NCBI GenBank assembly: GCA_963810275.1
Contig: CAWENF010000003.1
Location: 1-64,000, forward strand
Reading direction: 5' to 3'
Length of the DNA stretch: 64,000 nucleotides
Source of the DNA: an uncultured archaeon
GTDB lineage: Archaea > Thermoproteota > Bathyarchaeia > Bathyarchaeales > Bathycorpusculaceae
Made by a program: the position numbers and the translations under genes. This document shows, one piece after another, positions 15,185 through 38,516 of this stretch (positions within the stretch are counted from its first letter, which is position 1; the number at the start of each line of letters is the position of its first letter). The notes under the pieces were generated by a model. The model had not been told where the DNA came from and did not search any database. It worked only from the letters and a program-made list of their open reading frames with translations.

Positions 15185-15243
15185 AGGCGAAAAACCATGG
15201 GAAAAACACTCCCTCCCTTTTTTAGTTTAACGAATTCAGAAAC

Positions 15244-18104: not shown

Positions 18105-18160
18105 AAACAATGAAAAACCAACTCTTCTCCTCTTTTTTTAATTGGGTCAAGAGAAAACTA

Positions 18161-18259
18161 GGGGCTGAGAGGGCTTCTGTAAAATTGTATGTTTGCAAGT
18201 ATTGCTCTGATTTTCCTTTTTCTCCTTAAATCTCCTTAAACAGAAGCCTCAGCAAACCC
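18161..18259. repeat. Bulged inverted-repeat element, copy 2
   Basis: Arms and 3' segment essentially identical to copy 1; the central ~35 nt are different. Confidence 0.85.
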
Positions 18260-18311
18260 AACTCTTTTCAACCCGAAACTCTACTAAAACCAAAGAGATA
18301 GACGACAAAAA

Positions 18312-18725
18312 GTGGACTACAAAAAAATAACCAAAGAAGACATCTACAAAGACTACGGCGCATTCAGCCCGAAACCAAAAACAAAAAAGAAGACCCCAAG
18401 ACCCGCCAAAGAACTACATCAATGCGCCAAATGCGGCAGAGTAAGCGATGAGATGACTAGACATTCGCTGACAGGAGAACATAAGCCGCCTTTTATATGG
18501 CTCTGCAGGCAGCCGTGCCATGACGAAGTACATAAATTCGGCATAAAAATGAGTAAGGAAGAAAAAGAAGCCCAAAAACGTCAACTTCCATGCACCATAC
18601 AATTCCCCAAAGAAAACAACATAATCAATCCCTACGCCCAACTAATCGAGCCCGAATCGCTAGACGAGAAATTCAGGCAAACCTTCAAACCAAAAAAAAC
18701 TAAAAAAAAGACAACGACTCAGTAG
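18312..18725 (+). CDS. HNH-like zinc-binding protein
   Basis: CAKC...TRH...LCRQPCHDEVH resembles the CxxC-H-LCxxCH-H pattern of small HNH nucleases. Confidence 0.55.
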   Translation: MDYKKITKEDIYKDYGAFSPKPKTKKKTPRPAKELHQCAKCGRVSDEMTRHSLTGEHKPPFIWLCRQPCHDEVHKFGIKMSKEEKEAQKRQLPCTIQFPKENNIINPYAQLIEPESLDEKFRQTFKPKKTKKKTTTQ

Positions 18726-18736
18726 AAAAGGGGAGT

Positions 18737-18982
18737 TTAGAGTTTTTGGCGTCTCCATTTTTTGGTAGGTTCAGTTGCCGTTGGGGGATTTCCTGTCACT
18801 TTTTCGTTTAGCTGCTTTAGCTGCCAAACAGTTAAGTCTCGATCATTAGGCTGCTGCTTTATCCACAAGTCTCGGTACTCTCGAAATTGTGCTCCTGTGA
18901 TTTTGCCTTTTGATTGCAGCTCACTTAAGAGGTTTAGGAGGGCTTGAAGTTTTGCCTGCTCTTCAGTTTGTGGGGAACTCAT
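18737..18982 (-). CDS. Small hypothetical protein with a SHOCT-like helical hairpin
   Basis: LSELQSKGKITGAQFREYR pattern; ATG start; convergent with the HNH-like gene. Confidence 0.6.
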   Translation of the reverse strand: MSSPQTEEQAKLQALLNLLSELQSKGKITGAQFREYRDLWIKQQPNDRDLTVWQLKQLNEKVTGNPPTATEPTKKWRRQKL

Positions 18983-19386
18983 ATGCTATTTTTCCTTTAC
19001 TGATTAAGTATCGAGTTGAGCAGATAAACATTACAAAAAAGAATGGTTTCTTGGCACAAAAAGACCTGTCAATGTCGCTAAACATCAAAACAAAGACCTA
19101 ACTAAATTCATAAATCAAATCGCTTAAACATTGATGAAATCTGATAAAATTAAGATAAAAAGTTAATGATTACTTAAAAAAATGTCTTTTTACACCATGA
19201 TCAATCCCTATCAATTGATATTTAATATCCTCAATAATTAAAAATATGTCGCAACAATCCATCCATTAGGAAATAAAAAGCAAAATTTTCCATCCAAAAA
19301 AGACTGAAGTTACACGACAACTAGCAAATTATAAATACATCTACAAAACAAACAGGGAATCACCCAAAAAAGGAGAATAAAAAATT

Positions 19387-22108
19387 TTGAACTTTTCTAA
19401 GCAAACCGCAATAGCACTTTCAATGATTTTTATACTCAGTATATTCGCATCATCATTTGCAGCTCCATTGGCAAGCGCCCAGCAAAACATTCCATCTGGT
19501 ACACATATCGCAACTTATGCAAGAATCAACGTAGCCCCAAACCCAATCGGCGTCGGACAACAAGTCGCAGTAAACTTCTACCTAGCCACACCACTCATAG
19601 ATAGCAGCCCCCCAGAAAACATGACAGTCCACGTTACCGATCCAGACGGCAACCTTGAAGTTATGGGTCCATACACAGGCGACACAACCGGAGGAACATA
19701 CTTCAACTTCGTCCCAGACCAAGTCGGCGAATGGAAATTCCAAATGTTCTACGGCGGACAAGTAACCGCAGGCAGCTCAGGCTTCGGAGGAGGACCACCA
19801 ACAAACGCGGGACTCATCGAAGACCCAAGCGAAAGCCCAATCGTCACCCTAACCGTCCAAGAAGAACCCATAACACAAACCGCATACCCCCTAACCCCAC
19901 TACCAACAAACTACTGGGAAACACCAGTCTCCGCTCAAAACGTCCAAACCTGGTACAGCCTAATGGGTCCCTGGCTAGGACTTGGCACCATAACCTTTGC
20001 CCAAACAGGCGCATACAACGTCAGCAGCCTATGCAACCCTTGGACTCCATCAGTAACATCCGGACACATACTCTGGACTAAAACTTGGGGCGCAGGCGGC
20101 GTCGTAGGCGGAAGCGCAGGTGGAACCGAAGACTCAGGCAGCTACTGGTCAACAAGACAATACTGGCCACAGTACGCACCAGTAATCATGAACGGCAAAA
20201 TGTACTCAACATACTACCCAGAAACCACAGGCTACTCAAACGGCATACTATGCACAGACCTCTATACAGGCGAAACTTTATGGAAACTAAACACAACCTC
20301 AGTTCTCAGATGTGGAATGACAACACAATGGAAAACACCAAATATGTACGGCGTAATAGGCCCCTACATTTGGACCTCAGGCAACCTGCCAGCATCAGAA
20401 ACAGGCGGAAAACTAATCCAAAGCACAGGCATGGAAATGGGCATGTTTGGTCCACAACAAAAACCAGCATACAACCTATACTCCGCCGAGACTGGCCAAT
20501 ACGTACTAAGCATCGTTAACGGTTCCTCATTAACGATCAAAGAAGACTCTCAGGGAGACTTGATCGGCTACTACCTAAATAGCACCGTAGGCACCATGAG
20601 AACCTACGGCCCTGCCGGATCATTCGGTGGCCAACCAGTTACAGGTTTAGTGAACATCACTGCAGGCCACCCAGTCCTATGCTGCTTTAACTTCTCACAG
20701 GCACTCGGCAACGTCTTTGGATGGAGTCCATCACAGAACACCGCAATTGACTTCGGACTAGGCGTCATGTGGGCCAAACCAGTACCCACTGAAATCAACG
20801 GAGCCCCAATCACCCCACCACTCGCCATGGACGCAATCAACCCACTCGGCGGCGACGCAGTAGTACTAACAGGCGGATACACAATCATGCAAGGCGGAGG
20901 AGACGAAACATCCGGCTGGCTAGTCATAGCTAGCATGGACGACACAACAGGCGACATCTTAATGTGCAAAAACTTCACATACGCAGACGGCTTCAAATCC
21001 CTACTGCCCTACACCAGAACAACCAGCTGCAACATAGACGGCTACAGAGCAATAGCTAACGTAGTAAACAACGAAATCGACGCCATCAACATCCGAACAG
21101 GCCAAAAAGCATGGTCATCAACCCTACAAACGCCTTCAGGCACCACAAACACCTACGACACATTCGGCTTCAAAGCAGCACCAGTAAACGGAACACTAGT
21201 ACTCTTCGGACTAGGTGGAGACATCTGGGCATACAACGGAAAAACCGGCTCAGAAATGTGGTACACCAACACCACCAGCCTAATCGGCGACTCAGGCATA
21301 GAAACACCCTACGGAACCTGGCCGCTTTGGGTCTTTAGCTCACAAGCCTACACACCAGAAATCGCATACCTAGCAATCGGCCACGAATACAACCCACCAC
21401 TATTCCACGGAGGACAACTACTAGCCATCAACATGACCGACGGCACACTTGTTTGGAGTGAACTAGGCGCCTACATCAGATCAGTGGCAATCGCAAACGG
21501 AGTTCTACTATCCTTAAACGCATACGACAACCAAATCTACGCCTTCGGAAAAGGACCAACTAAAATGACAGTTGAAGCCCCAAGCATCGGAGTAAACACC
21601 GCAACGCCCATACACATCACCGGAACCATCACAGACGTCTCAGCAGGCATCGAACAATCCGAAGTCGCAAAGAACTACCCCAACGGAGTACCATGCATCT
21701 CTGACGAAAGCCAAAGCAGATGGATGGAACACGTATACCAAGACCAGCCAATGCCAACAAACATGACCGGCGTGCCAATCACAATAAGTGTACTTGACCA
21801 AAACGGAAACTACCGCGCCATCGGCACAACAACAAGCACTCCAGGAGGCACGTTTGGCTTCACATGGACACCAGACATACCAGGCGAATACACGCTCTAC
21901 GCTGGCTTCGAAGGTTCTAACTCGTACTGGCCAACAACTGCAACTACATCATTCTACGCAGGTGACCACCAAACACCAGCACCTTCCCAAACAATCCAAC
22001 AAGCAGCAGATAACACAATGCTCATAATCGCAGTCGGAGTAGCCATAGTGATTGCCATCGCAGTGGTTGGAGCAGTTCTGCTACTCGCAATAAAACGACG
22101 CAGCCTAA
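19387..22108 (+). CDS. Secreted, membrane-anchored PQQ-like beta-propeller surface protein (paralog 3); natural stop displaced by one extra base
   Basis: Same architecture as paralogs 1 and 2. After TM-KRR a TAA lies in the +1 frame at 22106-22108, followed by the pyrimidine/T tract also seen after the other two paralogs. The track extension to 22317 overlaps the next gene. Confidence 0.85.
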
Positions 22109-22222
22109 AATCAGGTCTAAAAATTTCTCCCCTATCTTTTTTTAAATGCATAAAAGTCACAATCGCTTTTTATAACATTAGTAGGATAAATGAAAAATAT
22201 TGCAATGAAAGGAGAATTGGGA

Positions 22223-22793
22223 TTGAAAAGAAAACTACTATCGCTTGCACTACTTTTGGTTGTGGCTTGTTTGATTACGCCAACTGTATCTGCAAATGCA
22301 CAAATAAATCGCATTAGCCAAACTCGAAAGTTTCGAAGACAACTACACATTCATAGAAGATCTAGAACCAAGTTACTATCCCTATACTCAAATAAAAGTT
22401 GACGATTACACAAGAATGGCAGAATTCAACTATATGTTCAACCAAGTCACTGACGCAAAAGGACAATTACACCTCAACGGTAAAGCATCAATTAGAGGCT
22501 CGATGCAAAGTGAAGCGTGGTTATTTGACGATATACGCCAAGTCTGGATTTTAGGCCAAAATCAAATACAATCCTCAAAAATGTTTTCTTCATTAAACGA
22601 ATTAAGCTTTGACTCCAACACCCAAACCAGCCAACAAGTAGGCATACTTGCAAACAAAATGAAAGCGAGCGCATTAGATCTAGATACTGGCCAAACCATC
22701 ACCGTAGACGTCTTAGCAATAGAGCATATGATGTTTAAGTATAACAACGATGAATTACAGTTTCAGAAATCCTGGGACATCGTTCATGATTAG
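22223..22793 (+). pseudogene. Secreted hypothetical protein split by a +1 frameshift (pseudogene or sequencing error)
   Basis: AAGGAG RBS and TTG at 22223 give signal peptide MKRKLLSLALLLVVACLITPTVSA. Removing one T at 22331-22333 joins it in frame (RKFEDNYTF...TRMAEF) to ORF 22416-22793. Confidence 0.75.
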
Positions 22794-22853
22794 CTAAGGC
22801 TTGCCCAGACAGATAGCAATGAATAATTAACACAAAACAGCCCTTTTAAAGTC

Positions 22854-23289
22854 ATGGACATATTTATGCAAGCGGCGATAAAGGAAGCAAAAAAAGGCTT
22901 ACAAGAAGGCGGAATCCCCATAGGCGCAGTGCTCGTACGAGAAGGCCAGATAATTGGGCGGGGACACAACCGCAGGGTTCAACAAAACAACCCCATCATG
23001 CATGCCGAAATAGACTGTCTGCAAAACGCCGGAAGAATAGGCAAATACACCAACACCACATTATACTCAACGCTGATGCCATGCTATCTCTGCGCCGGCG
23101 CTGTAGTGCAGTTTGGCATTAAAAAAGTCGTTGCTGGAGAAGCAGAAACCTTCGCCGGGGCACAGCAGTTTTTGAAATCAAACGGCGTAAAAGTTGTCTG
23201 ACCTAGAACTCAAAGAGTGCAAGGATTTGATGGCGCGGTTTATCCAAGCTAACCCCGAGTTGTGGAACGAAGACATCGGAGACCTCTAA
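22854..23289 (+). pseudogene. Cytosine/nucleoside deaminase (yeast FCY1-like) with a +1 frameshift at ~23199
   Basis: HAE and PCxxC zinc motifs, GGIPIGA. The conserved C-terminus DLELKECKDLMARFIQANPELWNEDIG continues in the +1 frame after GTC-TGA-C. Confidence 0.85.
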
Positions 23290-25879: not shown

Positions 25880-27000
25880 TTAGATTACCCCATTAAGTAG
25901 GGTTTGCAAATCATCCCGGACGAGCTCTATCCCCTGGTCATAGTAACTTGCAGTTGTTATCCAGTCAGGGTAAAGCCGGAACCAGCAACGTCCGCTAAAC
26001 GTCTTAGCGGCCAACCATCTAATTTGGGAATCATGTCATTTAATTGATCTATTGCACTCTGAAGGTATTTACTGCGAAGTTTCATGTTCTGAGCAAGTGA
26101 TGCAGATTCAATATCTACAATCACTGAATCTAACTCCTTTAGTAAAACATTCTTCCGAGATTCCTGAACCTTAGTATTAACACCAGCAAAATCTTTCGTG
26201 AAGATTTCTGAAATCCATTTCTTTATGTCCTGTAATTCGCCTATGGCTTTACTTGGGGTAATCGGAGGATCAGGTGTGTCAGCACCATAACCGAATACCA
26301 AGAAGCATCCAGATATATGTCCCAGTTGCCACTGCGATAATCCATGCAGACTACTCGGTTAACATCGCCAATGCTTAAGGCAGGATTAATCTGATGCCCC
26401 CACTAGAAGTCACTGCCTAATCAACATTTGTGGGTTATATCATGCGAGTACACGTCCCAGTCACTGCCCAAGCATTGATAAGCAATGTAGTTACCACTGA
26501 CATCTGGGTTTGCTAAACCGCCTAAAACCCTGCTTTGCCCCAAATAACATTATTTGCCAAATCTTTTTGTGTAACACGATAGCTATCTACATATCCCGCC
26601 CAAGCCAACATTGATCCGTCAATAGCAGTAAAACTGACCGGTCGCTGTTGATTGGAAAGGGGAACTGCTTCCTTTGGAGCTGCAACCACATCAAATGTTC
26701 CTCCGGTAGCCAGATTATAAGCAGAAACGTATGAGTTGATAAAGTGTATACCAGTGTATGAATCTGCTGAGTAATTTTCTCCTACATAGACTACTAGGTC
26801 ACCGCTAATTGAGGGGCTAAAGCAAGCCTGTTTAGGAAGCGGCAGACGCTCCTCCGTATGCGTTGCTAAGTTATACATATAGATAGACATGCCAGGGTAG
26901 GTTTCTAAATAAATGCTAGGCCACCAGGTATTGCACCAATCCTGCCACAATACAATATCACCATAAATTGCAGCGGGACCTTGGTTGGCGGTGTTTGTGG
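25880..27000 (-). pseudogene. Degraded cell-surface protein with Methanosarcina-type (TolB-like) beta-propeller repeats, 3' part
   Basis: TNTANQGPAAIYGDIVLWQD, IYMYNLAT.TE, SPSISGDLVVY; several frameshifts; ends PDWITTASYY...LLNGVI* at 25880. Confidence 0.8.
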
Positions 27001-27228
27001 AAAAGGAGACTTAGCTTGATAGGCAAAATGTTTGGTGTAGCTATTTTTATCATGATTACTTTTTTCTTGTTTGCGGGTTTAGAAAACAACATTGTAAAAG
27101 CTGAAACCATTATGCAGATTTCTGAAAGCAAGTTGACCATTTTGCGGTGGTGTGGCAGGACAATCGCAACGGACTCTGGGACATATACATGTATGACTTG
27201 ACGACAAATACGGAAACTCAAATTACCA
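27001..27228 (+). pseudogene. Inverted 5' part of the same surface-protein gene
   Basis: AAGGAG RBS, signal peptide (MFGVAIFIMITFFLFAG), and, after a frameshift, VVWQDNRNGLWDIYMYDLTTNTETQIT. Confidence 0.8.
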
Positions 27229-27235
27229 ATAGATG

Positions 27236-27244
27236 TTTTATACA
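27236..27244 (-). promoter_or_regulatory. Putative TATA box orphaned by the inversion
   Basis: TGTATAAAA on the minus strand; lies 25 nt before the TTG start once 27001-27225 is re-inverted. Confidence 0.5.
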
Positions 27245-27360
27245 AAATCCAGTAAATACCTTTTTTCAGATTGACACATAAATTTCAGCATTGACCCATA
27301 ACGCACTCATCAGGGTAAAGCCAACGAACGTTAAGCAGCAGGTGAAACCGGTGCAGTAGA

Positions 27361-27417: not shown

Positions 27418-27900
27418 GAATTCAAACCCAAATTCTTTTTGCAACTATACAAGCTCAAACCTTTTTTGCAAGAAAACGTGTACACAAACGATGAAGCTGA
27501 GAGAAATATCATTTGGATCCAACAATACCTCTAAAATCGAAACCCAGCATAACTCTTCGCTTTCGCATAAGCCTCAACTAGCTCCCTCTCCATTCTAATC
27601 AAAAACCCTTCCTCCATTGAATACTAACGACAGCGTATTTAGCTTAGAAAGCAACTCAAGCCCAATAGGAAAAGGTTGATTTTTAATCAAATAGCTATCA
27701 GCATTGATCGATCAACCAACCATTCTCCAATTAAATATCTGGAAATTCCTTTATTTAAATAAGGGAAATATAACAGATAACCAGCTATAAACAACTGGTC
27801 AACCGATTCTGATCTGCAATTGTTAACTTGTTTTCTGAAATTTCATATTGACGGGTACTGTTATATATGAAGTATTCGTATACGAATAAGAGGCTTTTTA

Positions 27901-28161
27901 GTGAACGAAAAAAATTATGACGAACAAAGAAAAGAAGAGAAACAAATAACAAAACAACTCGTACTCAACGACATCAAAGAATGGAAAAACAAAATCCCCA
28001 AAGAAAAACAAAACAAACCAGCCATAGTAGTAGGTACCAAAACATTCACTCCTGAAGAGATCGAAAAAGAAGTAGAAAAAGATACAGAATACGGCCAAGA
28101 ATTCTCAAAAATACTGGCAAAATCTCGACTTGAATTAACCAAGGGGGCAAAAGAACAATGA
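27901..28161 (+). CDS. Small charged hypothetical protein, partner of the downstream protease
   Basis: 86 aa; TATA-like TTATATA ~35 nt upstream; stop overlaps the next start (ATGA). Confidence 0.8.
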   Translation: MNEKNYDEQRKEEKQITKQLVLNDIKEWKNKIPKEKQNKPAIVVGTKTFTPEEIEKEVEKDTEYGQEFSKILAKSRLELTKGAKEQ

Positions 28162-28940
28162 TTGCCACATTAGAAACCAAAAAAATCATAGAAAGTCTAT
28201 CTTATAATAACCTTCTAAGCAAGTGGCGTTTTAAAACCTCAAAAAAACTATTAATCATCCGACCCAACGTACCGGGAGACAACTATACAGCTATGTTCTC
28301 CTACAACGCAGCAGAACAGGTAAAAACCAAAGCGGTAGCTGAAGGCTGGACAGTAACAGACCTTGCAGCAAACGATGCAAACCCCACCAATGTAGAACAG
28401 AAAATCAACAGTATAAAACCTGACTTCATAGTTCACTACGACCATGGAAGTTCATACACATTATATGGACAAAACAACAACTCAATAACACCTGCAATCA
28501 GCTCAAGCAACGTCGATTTGCTATCAAAAAGAGCAGTAAGCACAGTATCATGTGAGAGCGCAAGTGGACTGGGCCCTTTAGCCATCAGTTCAGTTGACAC
28601 CAAAGCATATTTGGGTTATGATGAACTCCACTGGGTGCACCTTTGGTATCTAGACAAATTCACGGAAGCAGCAAACGCTGCAAACTATGCACTTTTGGAA
28701 GGCAAAACCTACCAGCAAGCCTATGATTTAGCCATACAAAGGTATACTGAAAAATACAATGAACTAGCAGCTGTGGATGCATCTGCTGCTGGTTTGATGC
28801 TGCATGATCGTGACCACTTGCAACTATTAGGTAATCCAAGCGCTAAAGCATCAGGTGTCGTCATCTCAACGTTGAAACCAGCGCCGATACTAAAAAATCC
28901 AGTAATACGTGCACCTATAAGACGAAGGTTGAGCAAGTAA
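28158..28940 (+). CDS. Caspase/gingipain-fold (clan CD, C25/CHAT-like) cysteine peptidase, cytoplasmic
   Basis: PDFIVHYDHG (His96-Gly), AVSTVSC (Cys132), AYLGY, terminal LLGNP; no signal peptide. Confidence 0.75.
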   Translation: MIATLETKKIIESLSYNNLLSKWRFKTSKKLLIIRPNVPGDNYTAMFSYNAAEQVKTKAVAEGWTVTDLAANDANPTNVEQKINSIKPDFIVHYDHGSSYTLYGQNNNSITPAISSSNVDLLSKRAVSTVSCESASGLGPLAISSVDTKAYLGYDELHWVHLWYLDKFTEAANAANYALLEGKTYQQAYDLAIQRYTEKYNELAAVDASAAGLMLHDRDHLQLLGNPSAKASGVVISTLKPAPILKNPVIRAPIRRRLSK

Positions 28941-29203
28941 GCAAACCCCCAACTTTTCTTCTTTTTATTTTTCTATTCTCAATTAAATATAGACTACAAA
29001 AAGCAGCCACAACACAGCATTAAAAACAGTGGTATCGTCTCATAATATAACATGAGAGTTAACGAAAGAGCTTAGGAAAGCTTGCTTTGCAGCTAAAGCT
29101 TAGGAAATCTCTATTAATCCTAAGAAACTATCAGCTTACAAATAAAAGAAACTCAATTATATAGTCAAAAAGCATTGGGCTTTATTGCAAAAATTTTTCA
29201 GAA

Positions 29204-29845
29204 TTAATTTAACTCCAATTCCGGGATTTGTTTACAGATTTTTTCCCAGTTACCGGCAACATTTCGTTTAATTAGCTCTTTTGCTTTAGCAAAAACTGGA
29301 GAAGGCATCACCGACATCCACACTTTTGTCACAATTGCTTGATCATTAAGATCTAGCAGTGGAAACAACCAGTGAGAAAGAGTAGGAAATCGGTCTGGAG
29401 GAATCTTGCTTGACATCACTTGAGCAATAGAAATTTGGTCTTCATCTTTAGTTCTTTGTCTCAAAATTGGATAAAGATGTACATCCTCTTTATCTAAATG
29501 AATTCTTAAATGGGATCGCAAGACAGCAGTTGCTCTTGCGGTTGTCAAAAGATCAGGTGACTTACGGATTGACTCTAACCCGTTAACCATTAGGTCAAGT
29601 TCACGATGATCAATCAGATATGCTTGAGCAACCATAGGCGCGAGTTTGTCGATAGCTGGAAAAACAGCTACCTCCTCGCCTCTAGCATGATAATCCAAGA
29701 CTTCCCCTAAAATACTTAATCTGTTGAAAATTGCTTCTAAATCGCCACCAGAACGCGCTATTTCTAGCACTGTGGCATCAATTTCAGAAACGTCTCGTCT
29801 AAACGCATTATGAAAACAACGGACGATGTCAATGGGTTTAAGCAA
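29204..29845 (-). CDS. Hemerythrin-like (HHE cation-binding) protein
   Basis: HNAFRRD, HARGEE..VFP, DHRE, HLDKED..LYP. Confidence 0.88.
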   Translation of the reverse strand: MLKPIDIVRCFHNAFRRDVSEIDATVLEIARSGGDLEAIFNRLSILGEVLDYHARGEEVAVFPAIDKLAPMVAQAYLIDHRELDLMVNGLESIRKSPDLLTTARATAVLRSHLRIHLDKEDVHLYPILRQRTKDEDQISIAQVMSSKIPPDRFPTLSHWLFPLLDLNDQAIVTKVWMSVMPSPVFAKAKELIKRNVAGNWEKICKQIPELELN

Positions 29846-31032: not shown

Positions 31033-32616
31033 CTACAGCTTAAGAAAAGCCATCAACCGCTCGATAACAACCAATACTTTAACAACTAAACCGCCAAGTG
31101 CACCCAACCCACCAACCATAACCTTGAGATTAGCAATATCGCCATGAGTAAAAGCCCTAGATAATAACAACGCTGGAACCACTACTACAACAAACATCAC
31201 CACCCCAAATAAAAGTCGCAGCCAAGCAGCAAAAGGCAACTCAAAAACCAAAAAATAAGTAGCCACTCCAGCAATTACTGAAGAAAGAAGAATACGCTCA
31301 GAGGCAGCGAAATCTACAGTGAAACCATATGTCCTCTTAACAAAGATAAGACCCATAACCAATTCCGGTATCTGAGCCACTATCGCAGTGAGAATCAAAC
31401 CCCAAACTCCAAAAGTTAAGATTGAGGCATACCCTAAAGGAAAACAGATCAAGCCAGTAACCAATCCAATCTTCAAAACAAATCTAGTCTTGCCCTGACC
31501 ATTCAAAAAAGCAGTCAAACTCATATTTCCAAAAGCCAAAAACACATACTGTATTGCCAATAAAGCAAGAAACAGCCCAGCAGTCTCATAAGCATTCCCA
31601 AATAGAGTCGCTACAGCCGGGCCAGACAAGCTCATAACTATAGCAATCACTGGTAAGAGAAGAAGCGAACCATACTTGACCGAAAAGCGAAAAACATTCC
31701 CAAGAGAATCCCTGTCCTTTTCAGGATCTAACTTAGAAAAAGCCGGAAACATCGTTGTAGCGATAGGCATAGTAACGAAGTTTATTAGCACAATGAAATT
31801 CATTGCTACACCATAGTTGCCGATAGTTACGTTATCAGTCACATAATGAATGGGTAACATGAAAGCATAGAATTGAGGAAGCAACAGTATAACAATAGTT
31901 GTAAAAGACAAAGGCAAACAATAACTAAGCATAGCGGTGAAGTAAGCATTTAGCTCAAGCTTACGCGAGGATGGTCTAGGAAGCTGTCTATAAATAACAC
32001 CGATTAACAAAACACCAATCACAGCTGCGATAAATGTGCCGGCTGTATAGCCTATGACAGCTCCAGAAGTACCAAAACCGAAAATAATTAAAACAATAAT
32101 AATCGCAGTTTTGGAGATATTTTGCAAAACAAGCATTACACTATTGAGCTCAAGACGCTCATAGCCAGTAAACGCAGCAGTGGCCGCAGCAACTAGCCCC
32201 ATAGCAAATATGGAAAAAGAAACAAGCTGGATAAGCGGAGCTACAACTGGACGATTAAATATGTTAGTTGCCAAAAAGTCCGCAAAGAAAAACGAGAACA
32301 AAGAGAGAGCTAAACCAACAGCAACTTCGAAAATAATACCAGTTAAATACACGCTGCGGATCTCGTCCAATCGGTTTTCTGCACGATACTGCGCAGTAAA
32401 GCGAACCATGGCAAAGTTCATGCCCCAGTCACGAAAAATCTGAATAAGTAATGGAACAGTAACAACAATAGTGTAGAGACCATACTGATCAGAACCCAAC
32501 AGCCTAGCGATAAAAATCATACCCACCGACAGTATGACTGTAGAAATAACCAAACCCCACAGCATATGAAAACTGCCCTTAGCCGAAACCCTAGCTATAT
32601 CCCCAACTTTGGCCAT
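31033..32616 (-). CDS. Oligosaccharide flippase (Wzx/MOP family)
   Basis: IARLLG.DQYGLY, D.G...A..RF, about 14 TM helices, FPAFSKL. Confidence 0.9.
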   Translation of the reverse strand: MAKVGDIARVSAKGSFHMLWGLVISTVILSVGMIFIARLLGSDQYGLYTIVVTVPLLIQIFRDWGMNFAMVRFTAQYRAENRLDEIRSVYLTGIIFEVAVGLALSLFSFFFADFLATNIFNRPVVAPLIQLVSFSIFAMGLVAAATAAFTGYERLELNSVMLVLQNISKTAIIIVLIIFGFGTSGAVIGYTAGTFIAAVIGVLLIGVIYRQLPRPSSRKLELNAYFTAMLSYCLPLSFTTIVILLLPQFYAFMLPIHYVTDNVTIGNYGVAMNFIVLINFVTMPIATTMFPAFSKLDPEKDRDSLGNVFRFSVKYGSLLLLPVIAIVMSLSGPAVATLFGNAYETAGLFLALLAIQYVFLAFGNMSLTAFLNGQGKTRFVLKIGLVTGLICFPLGYASILTFGVWGLILTAIVAQIPELVMGLIFVKRTYGFTVDFAASERILLSSVIAGVATYFLVFELPFAAWLRLLFGVVMFVVVVVPALLLSRAFTHGDIANLKVMVGGLGALGGLVVKVLVVIERLMAFLKL

Positions 32617-32799
32617 TGACTAGTAACCCATTATGACCAAAGCAATCTACAAAGAAGCGTTTATGAATTATGGTTAAAAGCCAATGCTAACAAAATAAAA
32701 AAGTCACAATCACCAACTAAAACCATTAACTAAACTTTCAACCCGTCAAGTTAACCACGACAGTAATTAGTACTTTAAACATATTTGACAAGCAACTAA

Positions 32800-34878
32800 T
32801 CACACAGTTGCAGCTGTACCGTTCACACTGAATAACCAAGCATCGCCAACACGTGAAACCACCATGAAATTGGGAGATGAAAGAAGCCCTTTCACATCGA
32901 AATGGCGATAGGTAGGATTTTCCAGATTATATGTAGTTGCCATAGAACCAACATAAATGTACGAAATATTATATTTAGCCAAAAGAGGAATAGCGTCTGA
33001 ATTAGAGGCATTGCTGGTTAAAATTTTCATTAAGGGCTCATATCCTTCTATATAGCTGTACGCACAAACGGTATATCGACCGGTAATGGGCATTACAAAC
33101 TGTCCACTATCACCCATTGACACCAAAATATTGGCATTAGCAGACAGATGGTCATTAATCCAACCCATCAAAGAGATATCTGCATCGGCAATAGTTTCAA
33201 ATGTACCAAACTGAAAATCAATGTTTTTAATCTTATTTTGTTGTTCATCTATAAGGTTATCACCATAAGACAACATAGTACCCCCCAGCATTATGAGCAA
33301 GCCTAGAACCCAAACTTTTTTCCTGAAATACTTTAGGACTGGTATATGCGGTCTCTTATCCAGTAACCAATTAAAGACAAAAACAATACAGGAAAATGCA
33401 AAGAAAAATACAAGACTTAGAAAAACAGTTCCAGGAATAAATAGATGCTGCCAAACACGCAGTGGATTCAATAAAGATGTCATAATATCAATTTGAAAGT
33501 TAAGTGATAATGTCAAATAACCTATTAATGTGAAGAACAAGAGATAGAAAAGTATTAAACCTCTCCTAAAACTAAGTGGAAAAACATAGTTCAACCTTTT
33601 AGATGCAAAAGGAAGACAAATTCCAATTAACAGGAACCAATTCCAAGGCGCAAACTGAAAAAGAAAATCATATTTTGCAAAGAATACGGAAAGTTGTGGT
33701 AAATCTAGAAACCAATTGAAACTCACAAGGGACCGAATAGATTCCGATAGAGAACTTGTCTCATTGGTCATGTTTGAAAATTGAACACCAACAATGTGAG
33801 AAGTGTAAATGGAATAAAAATAGGGAACAGCCAACATAACAGGCAACAAAAAGCCAAAAAGAATAATCAAACTTCTTCTATTCCAAATAGAAGAAAATGA
33901 AAAAGACCGCTTAGACCTAAAAACAGAAAACATTTTGACGATCAAAACTAATACCAACCAAACCACCGCTACGAACAGAGCATCAGGATATGTTTCTGCG
34001 GCGATAAAAATAACTAAACCCATAAGAAAAGCGTTAAACCAAGTAACCCTTTCTTTTAATAAAAAAACATAGAATAAACCCAAACAACTAATTGAGAGAT
34101 AAAATGACAATAAAAGAGGCAAGCCTCCCCAAGCTATGGGCAAAATTGTTAAGCCAGTAAAAAACGGAACGATAATCAAGCCTAGTAGAGCAACAGGTAG
34201 ACTCTGGAAAATAGATTTTAAAGAAGAGTAAGTTGCAAAGGCAATCAAAACAGGCAAAATAACACTAAATAGTAAAACAACCTTCTGTACAGCTACCCCA
34301 AGCAATGCTACAAAAAAGCCACACAAAACATGGGCACCCGACGGATAGTCTAGAACAAAATTGCCAAATGGAACCGAAGAACGAGAGAACAAAGCATTGG
34401 AATGGTCCAATAAAACCCTGACTATTAAAGAGTGCAAAGCAGAATCATCATTTGTTCCTCCATAATGCCCAACGGGAATGCTGGAACTAAGAAACAGTAA
34501 AGTTGTTAGTACACAAAAAACCGCAATTATTGGCGCATAAATCTTTAAAGTAAATTTAGGTAAATTCGGTTTAAAGCTCTTGCGCCCAACAACTGTTCCA
34601 ACGCAGGCTAGAGCCAAAATAAAGATAGATGGAAAAATCAAGGGCGCATTAAAAGCCGAGAAAATAAGAACAAAAAGAAAAATAAAAACAAAACCAAATA
34701 AAATTCTAAAGCTCACTTTTTGGATGAAATCAAATGAATTTAAAAAACCATATGAGCGCTTACCTAAAACAGAAATAAACCTAAGAAGACCATAACCAAC
34801 AAAATAGAGAGCAAATAAACTTAAAACTGCAAACAAGAAAGAATCAATAAAAGTAATCTGAGACCAATCCCACCACAT
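32800..34878 (-). CDS. Polytopic membrane protein, GT-C-like
   Basis: Many TM helices, external loop NDDSALH, YPSGAH, and a soluble C-terminal domain (WI...I...DSGQF, YNISYIYVG). Confidence 0.75.
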   Translation of the reverse strand: MWWDWSQITFIDSFLFAVLSLFALYFVGYGLLRFISVLGKRSYGFLNSFDFIQKVSFRILFGFVFIFLFVLIFSAFNAPLIFPSIFILALACVGTVVGRKSFKPNLPKFTLKIYAPIIAVFCVLTTLLFLSSSIPVGHYGGTNDDSALHSLIVRVLLDHSNALFSRSSVPFGNFVLDYPSGAHVLCGFFVALLGVAVQKVVLLFSVILPVLIAFATYSSLKSIFQSLPVALLGLIIVPFFTGLTILPIAWGGLPLLLSFYLSISCLGLFYVFLLKERVTWFNAFLMGLVIFIAAETYPDALFVAVVWLVLVLIVKMFSVFRSKRSFSFSSIWNRRSLIILFGFLLPVMLAVPYFYSIYTSHIVGVQFSNMTNETSSLSESIRSLVSFNWFLDLPQLSVFFAKYDFLFQFAPWNWFLLIGICLPFASKRLNYVFPLSFRRGLILFYLLFFTLIGYLTLSLNFQIDIMTSLLNPLRVWQHLFIPGTVFLSLVFFFAFSCIVFVFNWLLDKRPHIPVLKYFRKKVWVLGLLIMLGGTMLSYGDNLIDEQQNKIKNIDFQFGTFETIADADISLMGWINDHLSANANILVSMGDSGQFVMPITGRYTVCAYSYIEGYEPLMKILTSNASNSDAIPLLAKYNISYIYVGSMATTYNLENPTYRHFDVKGLLSSPNFMVVSRVGDAWLFSVNGTAATV

Positions 34879-35204
34879 TGCCTACTCCTCACAAAATCCA
34901 AAAAAGAATATCCGCACTGATATAATCCAATTAATCAAACATCGCACTGAAGTAGACAAGTAATTGTTCAATTTGCGGATCAGCCACTAACCCCCTCTAT
35001 CACGTATTTAACAAATATATCCTTATTCTAAACACATTGAAAATAAGGAGAAAGGAACGTTTACAGTGATATAAAATATCCAGAAGCAGTGACTGAATTG
35101 TTCTAACCAGTAAGATAATAATTAAACTCTACAAAAGAAAAAACCAATTTATCGGAAAAGGTTAAAAACAAAATAAGTAATCAGAGTCTTTAAGGTGCAA
35201 TCAA

Positions 35205-36203
35205 ATGAGTAATAAGACCATTGGAATCACAGGGGGCTCTGGCTTTATCGGTTCATCAATAGCCACAGGGCTAAACCAGAATTTTACTGTAAAGCTTATC
35301 GACTTAAAAGAGCCGCAAAGGAATCTCCCAGAAAACGTCAGCTTCCAAAAATGCGATATTACAAAAAAGAATGAAGTTGAGGTAGCTCTAAAAGACACAG
35401 ATCTGGTAATACATGCAGCCATCATTCAGATTCCAACTATCACAGAAAAAAAAGAGTTAGCCTACGAAGTTAACTTCATCGGAACTCAAAACATATGCCA
35501 AACTGTTGCAAATAACGAGAGAATAAAAGGACTTATCCTAGCAGGTTCATGGCATACAATAGGTGAAAAGGGCTTAAAGGGCACTATAAACGAAGAATTC
35601 GGATTCAGACCAGACAAAGTCGAAGAACGCGCCAGACTTTATGCACTCTCAAAAATGGCCCAGGAAGCAACAGTTAGATTCTTCGATGAGATGACACCTA
35701 AAGTATTTGGCATCATCAGAATGGGAACAGTTTTAGGCGACAGTATGCCAGAGAAAACGGCAGCAAACATATTCGTCGAAAATGGATTAAAAGGAAAACC
35801 ACTAACACCATTCAAACAAAGCATGTACAGACCAATGCTATACGTTGACATAAAAGATATTGCAAAAGCTTACGAGATTTTCGCAAAAAGAATTGTACAA
35901 GGCGAGATAAAAAAAGACGGCAACAGCATGTCGGACATATTCAATATTTACTACCCAGAAGCCATAACAATAATCGAACTAGCAGAAATAACTAAACAAG
36001 TAATCACAGAACAAACCAATGGAAAAATCCAACCAAAAATCGATATAATAGACAATAAACAACCAGTTGCCTTTGATGAAAACGACAAAAAGCAGATTGA
36101 AGTAGACACAAGCAAAGCTACCGCACTCTTAGGAAACCTGAAACTTAAAAGCCCAAAAGAATCAATAGAAGACATAGTAAAAATAAGGGCCTCTCGGCTC
36201 TAA
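35205..36203 (+). CDS. NAD-dependent epimerase/dehydratase (extended SDR)
   Basis: TGGSGFIG and YALSK motifs. Confidence 0.9.
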   Translation: MSNKTIGITGGSGFIGSSIATGLNQNFTVKLIDLKEPQRNLPENVSFQKCDITKKNEVEVALKDTDLVIHAAIIQIPTITEKKELAYEVNFIGTQNICQTVANNERIKGLILAGSWHTIGEKGLKGTINEEFGFRPDKVEERARLYALSKMAQEATVRFFDEMTPKVFGIIRMGTVLGDSMPEKTAANIFVENGLKGKPLTPFKQSMYRPMLYVDIKDIAKAYEIFAKRIVQGEIKKDGNSMSDIFNIYYPEAITIIELAEITKQVITEQTNGKIQPKIDIIDNKQPVAFDENDKKQIEVDTSKATALLGNLKLKSPKESIEDIVKIRASRL

Positions 36204-36236
36204 TTCAGCTTCTTTCTTCTCCCTGCAAAGTAATGT

Positions 36237-37352
36237 TTAGCTATGATTTTTTGCATTGACAATTGCAGTTGCCACAGATTTGACTTCTGAAGATGTTAGC
36301 CCTGAACTAGAAGGTAAGTTTAGGCCACAATGTGATAGTTTTTCAGCTACAGGATATTCCTCACCAAAGAAAAGACCCATCTCCCGGAACACCGGTTGTT
36401 TATTCATTGGAATAAAAAAAGGTCTCGTATCAATCTGACTAGAACACAATTTTTCCATTAAACAATCACGGGATAATCCAAATTCGGGCTCAACCAGCAT
36501 AGAATACATCCAATAAACATTCTTGGCCCAAGGCTTCTCAACAGGCAAGGTTAAACCAGCGACATTCGATAAAAATTCATTATACCGCCTTGCGTTTTCT
36601 CTTCTCATCTCTACGAATTCTTCAATACGCTCAAACTGAGCTAAACCAATAGCCGCCTGTAGGTTAGTCATTCTGTAGTTATAACCTACTTTTGAATGAA
36701 GATAAACACGACTGCCTTTAGGGAAGCATAAGTCTCTGAGAGAACGGGCATTTTCAGCCAAGTTTTCGTCGTTAGTTACAACCATGCCGCCCTCTCCGCA
36801 GGTTATGATTTTGTTTGCATAAAAGCTGAAGCAGCCCAAGGTGCCTAATCCACCCGCTTTCTTGCCTAAATATTCGGCGCCGTGAGCTTCTGCAGCATCT
36901 TCTATGATAGATAAGCCGTATTCATCCGCCAGTTTGGAGATAGACCCCATTTCTACTGGATGACCATAGATATGAACCGGCATTATAGCCTTCGTTTTGT
37001 CAGTAATCTTTTGCTCAATTTGAGACACATCCATGTTCCAAGTATCAGGTTCGGAGTCAACCAAAACAGGTTTCGCACCGCAATAAAGAAGAGGAAAAAC
37101 AGACGCTATCATGGTAAGCGCGGGAACTATGACCTCATCATCCTTCTTTAAATCAAGAGAGGCTAAGGCTAAATGGATGGCGGTCGTTCCACTTGTTGAA
37201 GTTATGCCATATTTACAGCCGCAATAATTAGCGAACTTTTCCTCAAATTCTCCAACGTACTTGCCCCTTGACGAGATCCAATTGGTCTTAACACAATCAC
37301 TTACATATTCGAGTTCCTTACTTCCTAAAAGTGGAACACAAACAGGAATCAT
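36237..37352 (-). CDS. DegT/DnrJ-family aminotransferase, GDP-perosamine synthase-like
   Basis: SGTTAIHLAL, EDAAEAHG, SFYANKIITCGEGG, GYNYRMTNLQAA. Start reassigned to MIPV at 37352 to avoid overlap with the upstream gene. Confidence 0.9.
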   Translation of the reverse strand: MIPVCVPLLGSKELEYVSDCVKTNWISSRGKYVGEFEEKFANYCGCKYGITSTSGTTAIHLALASLDLKKDDEVIVPALTMIASVFPLLYCGAKPVLVDSEPDTWNMDVSQIEQKITDKTKAIMPVHIYGHPVEMGSISKLADEYGLSIIEDAAEAHGAEYLGKKAGGLGTLGCFSFYANKIITCGEGGMVVTNDENLAENARSLRDLCFPKGSRVYLHSKVGYNYRMTNLQAAIGLAQFERIEEFVEMRRENARRYNEFLSNVAGLTLPVEKPWAKNVYWMYSMLVEPEFGLSRDCLMEKLCSSQIDTRPFFIPMNKQPVFREMGLFFGEEYPVAEKLSHCGLNLPSSSGLTSSEVKSVATAIVNAKNHS

Positions 37353-37354
37353 CT

Positions 37355-38110
37355 TTAATTGCTCCTCGTCCGAGCTACAAAAACCATATTCCAAACATTC
37401 TCATCGACAGCGCTATCTACCCTCATAAAAGGGCAAATCTTTAAAACTTCAAATCCTGCCTGCTCAAGGTAATACTTGGTCTCCTGTGGAAAATAAAACC
37501 TAACAATATGTTTCTCATCTATTTCTTCGCAGGTTCCGCCAGACTTTTTGTTGAAAATAAGGAGTTTGTAGTTGACTTCACAAATTTGATCAGCTGATCG
37601 CAGTACTGGCTGAGCAAACCGAAGAAGCTTTACATCGGGGGTTTGAACAGTTTTAAGTCTTGAGTCAGGTAGTAATCTCATTACTGCTAAACCATTCCAA
37701 ACGTCGAAAATGAAAAGCCCACCAGGCTTTAGGTGTTTGTAAACATTCTCAAAAGTGTGAATTATACTTGTAGTTTCAGTTATGTACCCCATGACTGCAA
37801 ACATTGCCAAGCAGACATCAAATGTCTCATTTAATGATACTGTCCGAATATCGCTGTTAACAAATTTGCAGGCACACTTGTGTTTTGCTACATCAAGCAT
37901 ATTCTCAGACAGATCTACACCAGTTACACCGTAACCTTTTTCAAAAAGGACTTTTGTGTAATTTCCAGTTCCACACCCAAGCTCAAGTACACTTTTAACA
38001 GCATGATCTTTGAAGAAAGATTCTATGAAATTCATTTCAGAAAGGTAATCTTTATCCTGATAGAGCAAATCGTAGTATTTTGCTAGATTAACGAAACTTT
38101 CAGCTTTCAT
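37355..38110 (-). CDS. Class I SAM-dependent methyltransferase (sugar methyltransferase-like)
   Basis: YYDLLY..KDY, VLELGCGTG, GVDLS..ML, LKPGGLFIFD. Confidence 0.9.
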   Translation of the reverse strand: MKAESFVNLAKYYDLLYQDKDYLSEMNFIESFFKDHAVKSVLELGCGTGNYTKVLFEKGYGVTGVDLSENMLDVAKHKCACKFVNSDIRTVSLNETFDVCLAMFAVMGYITETTSIIHTFENVYKHLKPGGLFIFDVWNGLAVMRLLPDSRLKTVQTPDVKLLRFAQPVLRSADQICEVNYKLLIFNKKSGGTCEEIDEKHIVRFYFPQETKYYLEQAGFEVLKICPFMRVDSAVDENVWNMVFVARTRSN

Positions 38111-38516
38111 TTATCATCACTTTATCAAATTCTTTTCCTAAATAGGGACCCTGCTTAACCTCAATCAACTTAGTATCCTCAAGCATAGAAAAACCATGCC
38201 CACCAGCAACAAAAAATATAGTCGAACCACACGACAACTCAACACACTTAAACCACTTTCCTTGGCTATCATACAAATCAACCTTTGCACAGCCAGATTC
38301 AACATGAACTATCTCCTGAATCTCTCGAATTAAAACCTCTTTTTTCAAATGAATATGAGGTTTAAGCATTGTTCCTCTATTATAAGAGCTCACTGCTAAC
38401 TGCAGCGGAAAACTTTTTTCTGACAAAAAATTTGTCCCTTCTTTTGTCTCTTCAGCATGCATAATAATAGCAATAAGTGAACCGTCTTCCGAAGTAACTT
38501 TTTCCAAAAAAATCAC
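38100..38516 (-). CDS. Cupin-fold protein of the sugar biosynthesis cluster
   Basis: PHIH...QE and GGHGF...EVKQGPY cupin motifs. Confidence 0.8.
   Translation of the reverse strand: MIFLEKVTSEDGSLIAIIMHAEETKEGTNFLSEKSFPLQLAVSSYNRGTMLKPHIHLKKEVLIREIQEIVHVESGCAKVDLYDSQGKWFKCVELSCGSTIFFVAGGHGFSMLEDTKLIEVKQGPYLGKEFDKVMINES

Follow-up and report, generated by a model that had tools for sequence, protein, structure and literature searches.

An overlapping gene pair of an uncultured bathyarchaeon encodes a predicted clan CD protease and a small prodomain-like partner

Why would an archaeon encode a protease of the caspase type directly behind, and overlapping with, a gene for a very small protein, and what does the small protein do to the enzyme? 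The question is raised by a gene pair in a 64,000-nucleotide (nt) stretch of DNA, here called the window, from an uncultured archaeon of the Bathycorpusculaceae (assembly GCA_963810275.1, contig CAWENF010000003.1, positions 1 to 64,000). The first gene of the pair (27901-28161, + strand) is an open reading frame (ORF) with a GTG start and encodes a protein of 86 amino acids (aa), hereafter the partner. The second ORF (28158-28940, + strand) encodes a protein of 260 aa, hereafter the protease, which the analyses described below place in an unnamed family of clan CD cysteine peptidases. The answer that we favour, and to which we give roughly an even chance, is that the partner is a trans-encoded prodomain that serves as a pseudosubstrate inhibitor and/or chaperone of a probably cytoplasmic protease.

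The two genes overlap in the stop/start sequence ATGA (28158-28161, + strand), as read in the sequence, implying that partner and protease are translationally coupled. Located 32 nt 5' of the partner start codon is a TATA-like box, TTATATAT (27861-27868, + strand), the core of which, TTA.ATA, is invariant in all six aligned upstream regions of close homologs, while the rest of these regions have diverged; we regard the box as a putative promoter element. It is followed by a Shine-Dalgarno-like AAGAGG at 27888-27893 (GAGG at 27890-27893; + strand), a putative ribosome-binding signal that lies 7 nt before the GTG start, and GAGG or GGAG is seen again in the aligned upstream regions of homologs. 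The GTG start of the partner is itself credible because ATG stands at the corresponding position in close homologs. Past the stop codon of the protease gene, the sequence contains a T-rich run at approximately 28954-28980 (+ strand), and given that transcription in archaea terminates at oligo-T, this run is a candidate terminator. Approximately 600 nt upstream of the pair are without a long ORF, and a convergent gene for a hemerythrin-domain protein (29204-29845, - strand) lies downstream. With the TATA-like box at one end, and the T-rich run and the convergent hemerythrin gene at the other, the two-gene unit therefore appears to be self-contained. That these are real genes, rather than chance ORFs, follows from the number of their homologs, which is 124 for the protease and 64 for the partner.

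An earlier note on this DNA, made from the sequence alone, had described the pair as an isolated two-gene unit with a TATA-like box, an ATGA overlap and a T-rich terminator, and had characterized the 260-aa protein by its DHG (His96), SC (Cys132), AYLGY and LLGNP motifs and a basic tail. All of these features are present. The His96 codon (28443-28445, + strand) lies within the motif FIVHYDHG and the Cys132 codon (28551-28553, + strand) within AVSTVSC, followed by AYLGY at residues 150-154 and LLGNP at residues 223-227. The C-terminal tail (residues 226-260; 28833-28937, + strand) contains eight Lys or Arg residues, no Asp or Glu and no Cys, and is variable or missing among homologs; in the radical SAM-linked cousins described below, Cys-rich repeats take its place. 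The catalytic Cys132 is the only Cys of the window protein. A Kyte-Doolittle hydropathy scan, which is a simple and crude guide to localization compared to a dedicated predictor, revealed no signal-peptide-like or transmembrane stretch in either protein: the maximal 19-residue mean of the protease was 0.94 and that of the partner -0.07. This agrees with the earlier claim that the protease has no signal peptide, and the protease is probably cytoplasmic.

Using AlphaFold2 and an alignment of 50 sequences, which comprised the window protein and 49 of 120 listed homologs picked to span the identity range, we obtained a model of the protease with a mean pLDDT (the predicted score in the local distance difference test) of 94.7 and a predicted template modelling (pTM) score of 0.85. 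The catalytic core (residues 28-232; 28239-28853, + strand) consists of six core strands and flanking helices, as assigned by DSSP from the model, and structural alignments span residues 28 to 232 or 235. Foldseek returned 29 matches in the PDB at E <= 0.001, and all those listed, down to an E-value of 9.0e-04, are clan CD chains. The SAVED-CHAT protease (8tl0_C) came first with an E-value of 3.2e-8, and caspase-7, RgpB and legumain came next. A second structure search with VIA-align, which covered 48,161 chains, matched SAVED-CHAT (8tl0_A) with a Z-score of 17.5, a root-mean-square deviation (rmsd) of 2.7 and 180 aligned residues, RgpB (4ief_B; Z 15.3, rmsd 3.0, 184 aligned), Kgp (4rbm_A; Z 14.8, rmsd 2.7, 184 aligned), metacaspase-4 (6w8r_A; Z 13.9, rmsd 3.2, 182 aligned), legumain (4aw9_A; Z 13.8, rmsd 3.0, 177 aligned) and separase (9hvy_A; Z 13.7, rmsd 2.6, 162 aligned). 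These clan CD scores are far above those of unrelated Rossmann-like rows, which reach a Z of approximately 9.

We then compared the model with the features that define the clan. According to the available sections of PMC4357240, the His/Cys dyad of all clan CD members lies at the C-terminal ends of β3 and β4, a small β section is found between β3 and α3, and the residues of the S1 pocket are carried by loops L1, L4 and L5. In the model, His96 ends strand 90-95 (β3) and is followed by a β-hairpin at residues 101-115, and Cys132 ends strand 126-131 (β4). Because both the predicted fold and the positions of the dyad fit this definition, the 260-aa protein is, by modelled fold and catalytic residues, a clan CD peptidase with the caspase-haemoglobinase fold. 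All 50 aligned sequences share His96, Gly97 and Cys132, and R35, D41, H93, G104, T129-C132, G139, Y151, G153 and Y154 are among the further invariant residues. In addition, six more distant members of approximately 200-620 aa retain the GHG, [AT]C, Y-x-G-Y and RD-x-L-x-LLG motifs. The caspase/gingipain-type fold and the His96/Cys132 dyad that the earlier note had proposed are therefore upheld by the model and by conservation, and both dyad residues lie on the surface that is contacted by the partner in the complex model described below. The invariant Arg35 directly follows β1 and is thus situated on loop L1 of the model, where, in the same sections of PMC4357240, caspase-7 carries Arg87 and legumain has the S1-pocket residue Arg44 at the corresponding place. 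By analogy, this hints at a preference for an acidic residue or Asn at P1; D41, likewise invariant, could instead point to a basic one.

The pairing of the two genes extends well beyond the window. A scan of genome contigs yielded a set of 20 loci with the protease family, and in 18 of these a partner homolog (E 2e-43 to 5e-7) is encoded directly upstream of the protease on the same strand. The two loci without a partner call are L012, which has just 93 nt of upstream sequence, and L010, which is an N-truncated remnant of a protease gene; the co-occurrence of the two genes expected by the earlier note is thus seen in 18 of the 20 loci. Taking the start codon nearest to the aligned start, the junctions in the 18 two-gene loci range from an 8-nt overlap to a 3-nt gap. 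These conserved junctions suggest that translational coupling has been kept from the Bathyarchaeia to metagenome-assembled genomes (MAGs) labelled as Methanosarcinales, Methanoregulaceae and Methanospirillaceae, and to contigs labelled as Anaerolineae and Myxococcales. The adjacency is also visible in NCBI locus tags, where partner and protease homologs adjoin, for example NWE92_12205 beside NWE92_12200. Among the ten loci found in genomes of the class, a separate upstream partner is present in five (the window's own locus, L022, L023, L025 and L026), and L028 (919-2130) has a weak fused partner hit on the protease itself. No partner was found in the remaining four of these ten loci, which are L024, with its in-frame stop, and the distant homologs L027, L029 and L030; the latter three indicate that pairing is a trait of the subfamily and not of the whole superfamily.

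Further evidence for the relationship between the two proteins comes from natural fusions. Of 262 family proteins, seven are matched in their N-terminal part by a hidden Markov model (HMM) of the partner, with E-values between 2e-10 and 5.8e-4, namely P0167 (2e-10), P0146 (7.8e-8), P0152 (1.5e-6), P0143 (9.4e-6), P0173 (1.1e-5), P0155 (3.5e-4) and P0165 (5.8e-4). In the fused proteins, the partner domain is followed by a Ser/Lys-rich linker of 30-40 residues and then by a protease with intact H-x-x-HG and SC motifs. Profile comparison using hhalign related the partner family to the fused N-termini with a probability of 97% (E 1e-10, 59 columns) and the protease half to the fused proteins with a probability of 100% (E 1e-71). 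Judged by its sequence, the fused form is arranged like a zymogen whose prodomain is N-terminal. Apart from these fusions, the only longer partner-bearing protein retrieved was P0327 (204 aa), which is weak evidence that the partner occurs in no other context; P0327 is probably the partner gene of L019 annotated from a start codon located far upstream.

The partner itself, which contains VGTKTFTPEEIEKEVEKDTEYG, was examined in an alignment of 25 sequences. G45, E57 and G65 are invariant, and L20, T62, E63 and E78 are nearly so. The AlphaFold2 model of the partner (pLDDT 80.9) consists of a helix at residues 3-31, a β-hairpin formed by residues 42-44 and 47-49, and two further helices at residues 51-59 and 63-85. 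The hairpin segment (residues 40-48, PAIVVGTKT; 28018-28044, + strand) includes the invariant Gly45 and, at its tip, Lys47, a position that, as read by eye, is occupied by Lys or Arg in 21 of the 25 partners and by Lys in the eight aligned fused forms that have the motif. The best-conserved motif, EVEKDTEYG (residues 57-65; 28069-28095, + strand), may form a turn of structural importance, or may be a site that is recognized or cleaved; within it, D61 is replaced by Gly or Glu in 3 of the 25 sequences, also as read by eye. Searches with the partner returned no family above threshold in Pfam, DNA-binding families included, none in NCBIfam and, by profile, none among PDB sequences. Its fold gave only matches in the noise range against solved structures, with a best Foldseek E-value of 3.6 and a best VIA-align Z-score of 5.1 (rmsd 3.4, 71 aligned). 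We also considered a resemblance to the antitoxins PezA and epsilon and rejected it, given that VIA-align Z-scores of 4.0-4.8 are not meaningful.

When partner and protease were modelled together, the interaction score ipSAE was 0.86, 0.86 and 0.87 in three runs and 0.00, 0.00 and 0.30 in controls. For comparison, 58 of 80 solved complexes reach the ipSAE mark, as do 2 of 110 mismatched pairs; these counts are approximate here given that our own alignments were used. The three runs share at least 94% of their contacts, with a partner pLDDT of at least 82, and since neither protein has a relative by sequence among solved structures, it is unlikely that the score reflects memory of a solved complex. 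These results support binding of the partner to the protease. The predicted interface involves protease residues 41-43, 46-47, 96, 110, 132, 157-163 and 200-219, and partner residues 24-32, 36, 40-46, 48, 51, 54 and 67-82. It has two parts. In one, two helical segments of the partner (24-32 and 67-82) clamp the protease helices at residues 200-219 through 67-81 contacts, and this region of the protease holds the conserved residues A210, A211, L215, R218 and D219, which are otherwise unexplained. In the other, the hairpin lies across the active-site cleft, where partner residues 40-46 and 48 contact protease residues 41-43, 96, 132 and 157-163, and partner residues 43 and 48 contact protease residues 42-43 and 47. 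Both His96 and Cys132 are contacted by the partner segment, and the tightest pairing is between partner residues 40-44 and protease residues 159-163 in the loop after β5. It is at this loop that clan CD enzymes hold the substrate backbone. The modelled geometry of the interface is that of a pseudosubstrate or prodomain lid.

Lids of this kind recur in clan CD. In the available sections of PMC4357240, a loop of the RgpB prodomain injects an Arg residue into S1, inhibits the enzyme and is also the first site to be cleaved, and the N-terminal gatekeeper of TbMCA2 and the activation peptide (AP)/LSAM region of legumain are further examples of regions that occlude the active site. The natural fusions and the hairpin over the dyad lead us to view the partner as prodomain-like and as probably inhibitory or chaperoning, which narrows the earlier suggestion that it might be a substrate, inhibitor or activator; that binding has an inhibitory effect is what we infer from the model. 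In the mechanism we propose, the N-terminal prodomain of the protease would have been split off as a separate polypeptide, encoded by the first gene. Both proteins would be made together through translational coupling and would assemble into a heterodimer, in which the two long helices of the partner would clamp the helical face of the protease at residues 200-219 and the hairpin (residues 40-48) would pair in a substrate-like manner with the loop at residues 157-163, covering His96 and Cys132. The partner would thereby act as a pseudosubstrate inhibitor and/or folding chaperone, in the manner of the RgpB prodomain or of securin, and the protease would become active only once the partner is displaced, degraded or cleaved.

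How does such a module compare with known systems? Its best structural neighbours are the CHAT proteases, exemplified by SAVED-CHAT (8tl0) of CBASS/type III CRISPR and by TPR-CHAT/Csx29. CHAT proteases are cytoplasmic prokaryotic clan CD enzymes that remain inactive until they receive a signal. In contrast to these, the protease described here has no Pfam CHAT match, no fused SAVED or TPR sensor and no CRISPR or CBASS neighbours, and its control would come from a small bound protein rather than from nucleotide-driven filament formation. The closest mechanistic analogy is provided by separase and securin (C50; 5u1t), in which control of a clan CD domain (Z 13.4-13.7) comes from a second protein chain. 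Securin acts as chaperone of separase and also lies in its active site as a pseudosubstrate inhibitor. However, separase is a giant eukaryotic enzyme, securin is disordered, and there is no homology between securin and the partner.

RgpB (C25; 4ief) shares the clan CD fold and has an N-terminal pro-piece that inhibits via a loop inserted into the active site, as described in the available sections of PMC4357240; similarly, the putative pro-piece of our module takes the N-terminal position in the fused proteins, and in the complex model its hairpin is placed over the dyad. RgpB differs in that the protease of the window has no C25 sequence match, spans approximately 200 aa and lacks an Ig-like domain and a signal peptide, and in that the 86-aa pro-piece is mostly helical, is usually encoded by a separate gene and has no solved fold match. 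The TbMCA2 gatekeeper and the AP/LSAM region of legumain cross or block a clan CD active site and stabilize the enzyme, again according to these sections of PMC4357240, but in both cases the blocking region belongs to the same chain, and fold and position differ, being C-terminal in legumain; the VIA-align match to the metacaspase 4af8 had a Z-score of 9.3 (rmsd 3.6, 182 aligned). Full-text literature searches surfaced no description of the pair, in agreement with the earlier note, which knew of none. The nearest case found was the Microcystis orthocaspase MaOC1, which, in the portions available of its description, is a prokaryotic homolog of caspases with a functional link to small proteins encoded nearby. 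MaOC1 is a C14 enzyme that, in these same portions, cleaves the antitoxin of a separate downstream type II toxin-antitoxin pair, whereas the gene of the partner studied here precedes and overlaps that of the protease, and its product is homologous to the N-terminal domain of fused proteases. It is therefore plausible, on the basis of the models, that the pair represents a new, unnamed clan CD family with its prodomain as a separate, coupled gene, even though the principle of an inhibitor-controlled caspase-fold enzyme is already known.

In support of its unnamed status, the 124 homologs of the protease, found among 1247 candidates in a database clustered at 90%, are all annotated as 'hypothetical'; those with named sources come from Bathyarchaeota/Bathyarchaeia, anaerobic methanotrophic (ANME) archaea of group ANME-2, Methanosarcinaceae and Hodarchaeota MAGs. 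The family comprises at least 495 representative clusters at E <= 1e-3 (90 at E <= 1e-10 and 33 at E <= 1e-30), none of them named. The window protease has no match at E <= 10 in Pfam and none in NCBIfam or PADLOC, with PADLOC-DB 2.0 returning no family for either protein at E <= 0.1. Among PDB sequences, neither phmmer nor the 50-sequence profile found a relative of the protease, and the profile search contained no clan CD chain. Named clan CD families of Pfam were not matched by any of the 50 family members (E <= 1) or by ten distant members (E <= 0.1). This includes the C25 (PF01364), C14 (PF00656), C13 and C11 HMMs as well as DUF6345 (PF19872), for which the window protein, the distant members and the 50 members all gave no match, and the CHAT HMM (PF12770), which was unmatched by the window protease and by the 50 members at E <= 1. 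Judged by these HMMs, the protease is not a member of CHAT, C25, C14 or DUF6345. In a protein-cluster atlas, the nearest named cluster was a CHAT cluster at 0.90, and DUF6345 had a similarity of 0.89, values that serve as a lead only. A direct hhalign comparison of the protease alignment with a genuine CHAT protein (genome G077) gave an uninformative probability of 1%, and therefore the clan membership of the protease rests on structure; CHAT proteins are present in only 1 of 81 genomes of the class. Sub-threshold Pfam rows (Ras, ThsB_TIR, DUF6365, CBM30 and others) were scattered and were treated as chance. Among the distant members, P0209, P0235, P0228 and P0249 begin with the protease domain, which leaves no space for a signal peptide ahead of it, and continue with Big_3_5, CarboxypepD_reg, Flg_new or PEGA domains; P0210 has a hydrophobic C-terminal segment resembling a membrane anchor.

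The protease gene is present in a single copy in the 2.26-Mb source genome and has a patchy distribution, occurring in 10 of 201 genomes of the class (E <= 1e-5), in 7 of the 121 that are of high quality and in 2 of the 11 other genomes of its own genus. Some copies have decayed. The protease at L010 (4896-5492) is N-truncated and has no partner, the one at L020 (4929-5663) is frameshifted into three frames, and the one at L024 (1516-2115) has an in-frame TAG and no partner that we could find. As far as the sequences tell, such patchiness fits an accessory, horizontally moving module and a role in conflict or of the toxin-antitoxin type. The suggestion of the earlier note that the pair is possibly related to defence or cell death is not directly supported: only the patchy distribution fits, neither protein has a PADLOC match, and among the window neighbours scanned there are no defence genes and no CRISPR or CBASS. 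We also considered a viral link, given that the atlas listed unnamed look-alike clusters that are approximately 50% Uroviricota, but a tblastn search against 50,697 phage records and a scan of viral contigs were both empty, and we dropped this lead.

Contigs at least 99% identical to the window are present in four metatranscriptome runs; they match 27909-28146 and three portions of the protease gene. The sole difference is a T>C change at 28445, which is synonymous in the His96 codon. The contigs do not span the gene junction, and none covers 27741-27908, 28147-28314 or 28947-29000. These contigs are a weak hint that the pair is expressed.

Members of the family from elsewhere show that the same protease core can occur in a different setting. 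In 6 of the 20 loci (L008, L012, L013, L014, L015 and L017), the protease is 322-351 aa long and has an extra C-terminal tail with five to eight or more Cys residues, three to five tandem repeats of the C-[RK]-[ST]-G-L-P-[DN]-S type and CAAGP-like motifs. In exactly the same six loci, the protease gene is immediately followed by a gene for a radical S-adenosylmethionine (SAM) protein of approximately 470 aa with a SPASM domain, resulting in cassettes of partner, tailed protease and radical SAM/SPASM gene at L008:4986-7391, L012:46-2485, L013:4953-7446, L014:3269-5537, L015:4878-7288 and L017:837-3306. Among the best 25 matches listed, the radical SAM/SPASM proteins fall below every NCBIfam equivalog cut-off, the top match being to the mycofactocin maturase with 196-226 bits against a cut-off of 265 bits. 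L014 and L017 are on contigs labelled as bacterial MAGs (Anaerolineae and Myxococcales), yet carry an otherwise Methanosarcinales-type version of the three genes, which may reflect horizontal transfer or mis-binning. The window locus has neither the Cys tail nor, among the neighbouring ORFs scanned, a radical SAM gene. A precedent for the cousins, although not for the window pair, is provided by CrpA and CrpC. In the available sections of PMC13692751, a radical SAM/SPASM enzyme of Methanococcus voltae introduces ranthionine cross-links into a Cys-rich protein. The cousins resemble this in that a possible substrate of protein size, with C-terminal Cys repeats, is encoded beside a radical SAM/SPASM maturase in methanogen-type archaea. 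By this analogy, the tailed protease may itself be a protein-sized substrate, fused to an enzyme, that receives thioether-type cross-links. The two systems differ, according to the same sections of PMC13692751, in that the Crp radical SAM enzyme belongs to TIGR04463, the repeat motif is another one and CrpA has no protease domain.

Several observations weigh against the view that the partner is a trans-encoded inhibitory or chaperoning prodomain. The score of the complex expresses the model's own confidence and is not a measurement, and the same data are compatible with an activating or structural role of the modelled partner. Lys47 at the tip of the hairpin is not among the confidently named contacts, and E57, T62, E63 and G65 are not in the named interface, so that part of the conservation of the partner is unexplained by the complex model. 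In addition, the distant homologs L027, L029 and L030 do without a partner, and the contigs of the RNA runs leave the gene junction unbridged and could derive from DNA carry-over in the libraries. It is the motif around E57-G65, together with the hairpin, that brings up the possibility that the partner is instead the physiological substrate or precursor, cut near the hairpin (G45-K47) or within EVEKD-TEYG to release a helical effector or signal. We consider this unlikely. The hairpin does pair with the substrate-binding loop and contact both catalytic residues in the model, the best-conserved motif of the partner is acidic and lies outside the named interface, and the invariant Arg35 on L1 is comparable to caspase-7 Arg87 and legumain Arg44; the inhibitory prodomain loop of RgpB, moreover, doubles as first cleavage site, both comparisons resting on the available sections of PMC4357240. 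However, the large helical clamp and the fused architecture resemble a stable domain-domain interface more than a passing contact of enzyme and substrate, and D61 is not invariant among the partners. Quite unlikely, in our judgement, is that the partner is an obligate non-inhibitory cofactor or adaptor that lends the protease stability and completes its substrate groove or controls access to it, with the heterodimer being the active enzyme. Linkage, coupling, fusions and the binding model would fit such a cofactor equally well, and PMC4357240, in the sections available, describes that legumain is not expressible without its C domain and is unstable without LSAM, which remains attached once processing has taken place. 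Against this, a hairpin placed over His96 and Cys132 as modelled would block the substrate unless it moved, and the disordered Ser/Lys-rich linker of the fusions is more typical of a removable pro-piece.

A further set of alternatives concerns the role of the module rather than the action of the partner. It could be a toxin-antitoxin-like or abortive-infection switch in which the protease is the toxin and a labile partner the antitoxin, a role that overlaps with our preferred reading and that we regard as doubtful. The pair matches the gene layout of a type II toxin-antitoxin system, with two small co-directional, overlapping genes and the neutralizer-like gene preceding that of the enzyme. 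Its patchy distribution, single copy number and decayed copies (L010, L020 and L024) are of the kind expected, as is its spread over broad taxa (Bathyarchaeia, Methanosarcinales, Methanomicrobiales-type MAGs, one Hodarchaeota MAG and the two bacterial-labelled contigs), and SAVED-CHAT, the best structural neighbour, is a defence protease. A type II antitoxin, however, usually carries a DNA-binding domain, and the partner has no Pfam family above threshold, DNA-binding domains included; moreover, PADLOC matches neither protein, the neighbouring genes encode surface proteins, a hemerythrin and glycan functions rather than defence, and neither viral contigs nor phage records yielded a close relative. 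Alternatively, the enzyme could be a maturation protease for proteins or peptides, acting on its own C-terminal tail or on a neighbouring product, with the window copy being tail-reduced. The perfect coincidence of Cys-repeat tails and radical SAM/SPASM genes in six loci favours this, as does the CrpC/CrpA precedent of a radical SAM/SPASM enzyme acting on a Cys-rich protein in methanogens (PMC13692751, available sections). We nevertheless judge it very unlikely: the window protease has its catalytic Cys as the only one and a Cys-free tail, no radical SAM gene is present among the neighbouring window ORFs scanned, a functional link between tail and protease is speculative, and Crp, in the same sections, uses a different radical SAM family and substrate. 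It is highly improbable that the 260-aa protein lacks peptidase activity and uses its caspase fold as a pseudo-enzyme or scaffold. Although c-FLIP and Raptor are among the structural matches and pseudo-orthocaspases have been described, the latter have Tyr and Ser at the catalytic sites according to the available sections of PMC6426788, whereas the His-Gly and Cys of our family are invariant in all 50 sequences and are kept in distant members.

Returning to the trans-encoded prodomain, we tentatively put forward a broader proposal that is possible, if on the doubtful side, namely that an unrecognized and mainly archaeal clan CD family together with an independent prodomain gene forms a switch made of a protease toxin and a pseudosubstrate antitoxin that destroys itself in response to a trigger, and that the protease core would have been re-used with radical SAM/SPASM-cross-linked Cys-repeat tails in methanogen/ANME-type lineages. 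Proteases of the caspase fold have a central part in the death of eukaryotic cells and are emerging in prokaryotic immunity, and their repertoire and control in archaea are poorly charted. With a core of approximately 205 residues and a partner of 86 residues, the pair would offer a small and tractable system for a clan CD protease restrained by a detachable pro-piece, and the existence of natural fused and split forms would show how a prodomain can turn into a separate regulator gene. A name for the family would extend to many proteins now annotated as 'hypothetical' in Bathyarchaeia, Methanosarcinales/ANME and Asgard-type metagenomes, and the radical SAM-linked cousins suggest that substrates of protein size, fused to an enzyme and modified by thioether-type cross-linking, form a class not described so far.

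Finally, we inspected the surroundings of the pair in the window. Its neighbours include three large surface-type proteins with PQQ-propeller and Ig-like domains, the hemerythrin, a DUF2807 protein and a glycan-synthesis cluster. The propeller proteins are encoded at 12572-22317 (+ strand) by three consecutive ORFs of 870, 858 and 976 aa with matches to the PQQ_2 β-propeller, two of which share Ig-like or CarboxypepD_reg matches. This stretch has a strongly negative GC skew and a G+C content above that of the rest of the window. A functional link between the propeller genes and the pair was considered and rejected, as a homolog of the third ORF lies upstream in only 2 of the 20 loci (L003 and L005); the propeller neighbourhood is found only in loci of Bathyarchaeia and is thus read as shared ancestry. 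Between these genes and the pair, at 26421-27281, are short ORFs on opposite strands with β-propeller-like repeats (IYMYNLATHTEE on the - strand and DIYMYDLTTNTE on the + strand). One frame on the + strand has a hydrophobic N-terminus, the region contains no inverted repeat, and 26522-26947 gave no Pfam match; these ORFs could be remnants of broken secreted propeller genes. The ORF-poor region 5' of the module also contains two adjacent 25-nt direct repeats (27420-27471) that are 76% identical and have a spacing of 27 nt. On the other side of the pair, a cluster for glycan or polysaccharide synthesis at 31033-39568 comprises genes for a Polysacc_synt flippase, an epimerase, a DegT aminotransferase, a methyltransferase and a GDP-mannose 4,6-dehydratase. 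Lastly, a stop-to-stop frame at 22827-23201 (+ strand) contains an HAE...PC..C motif and, by eye, resembles deaminases of the cytidine/deoxycytidylate type.

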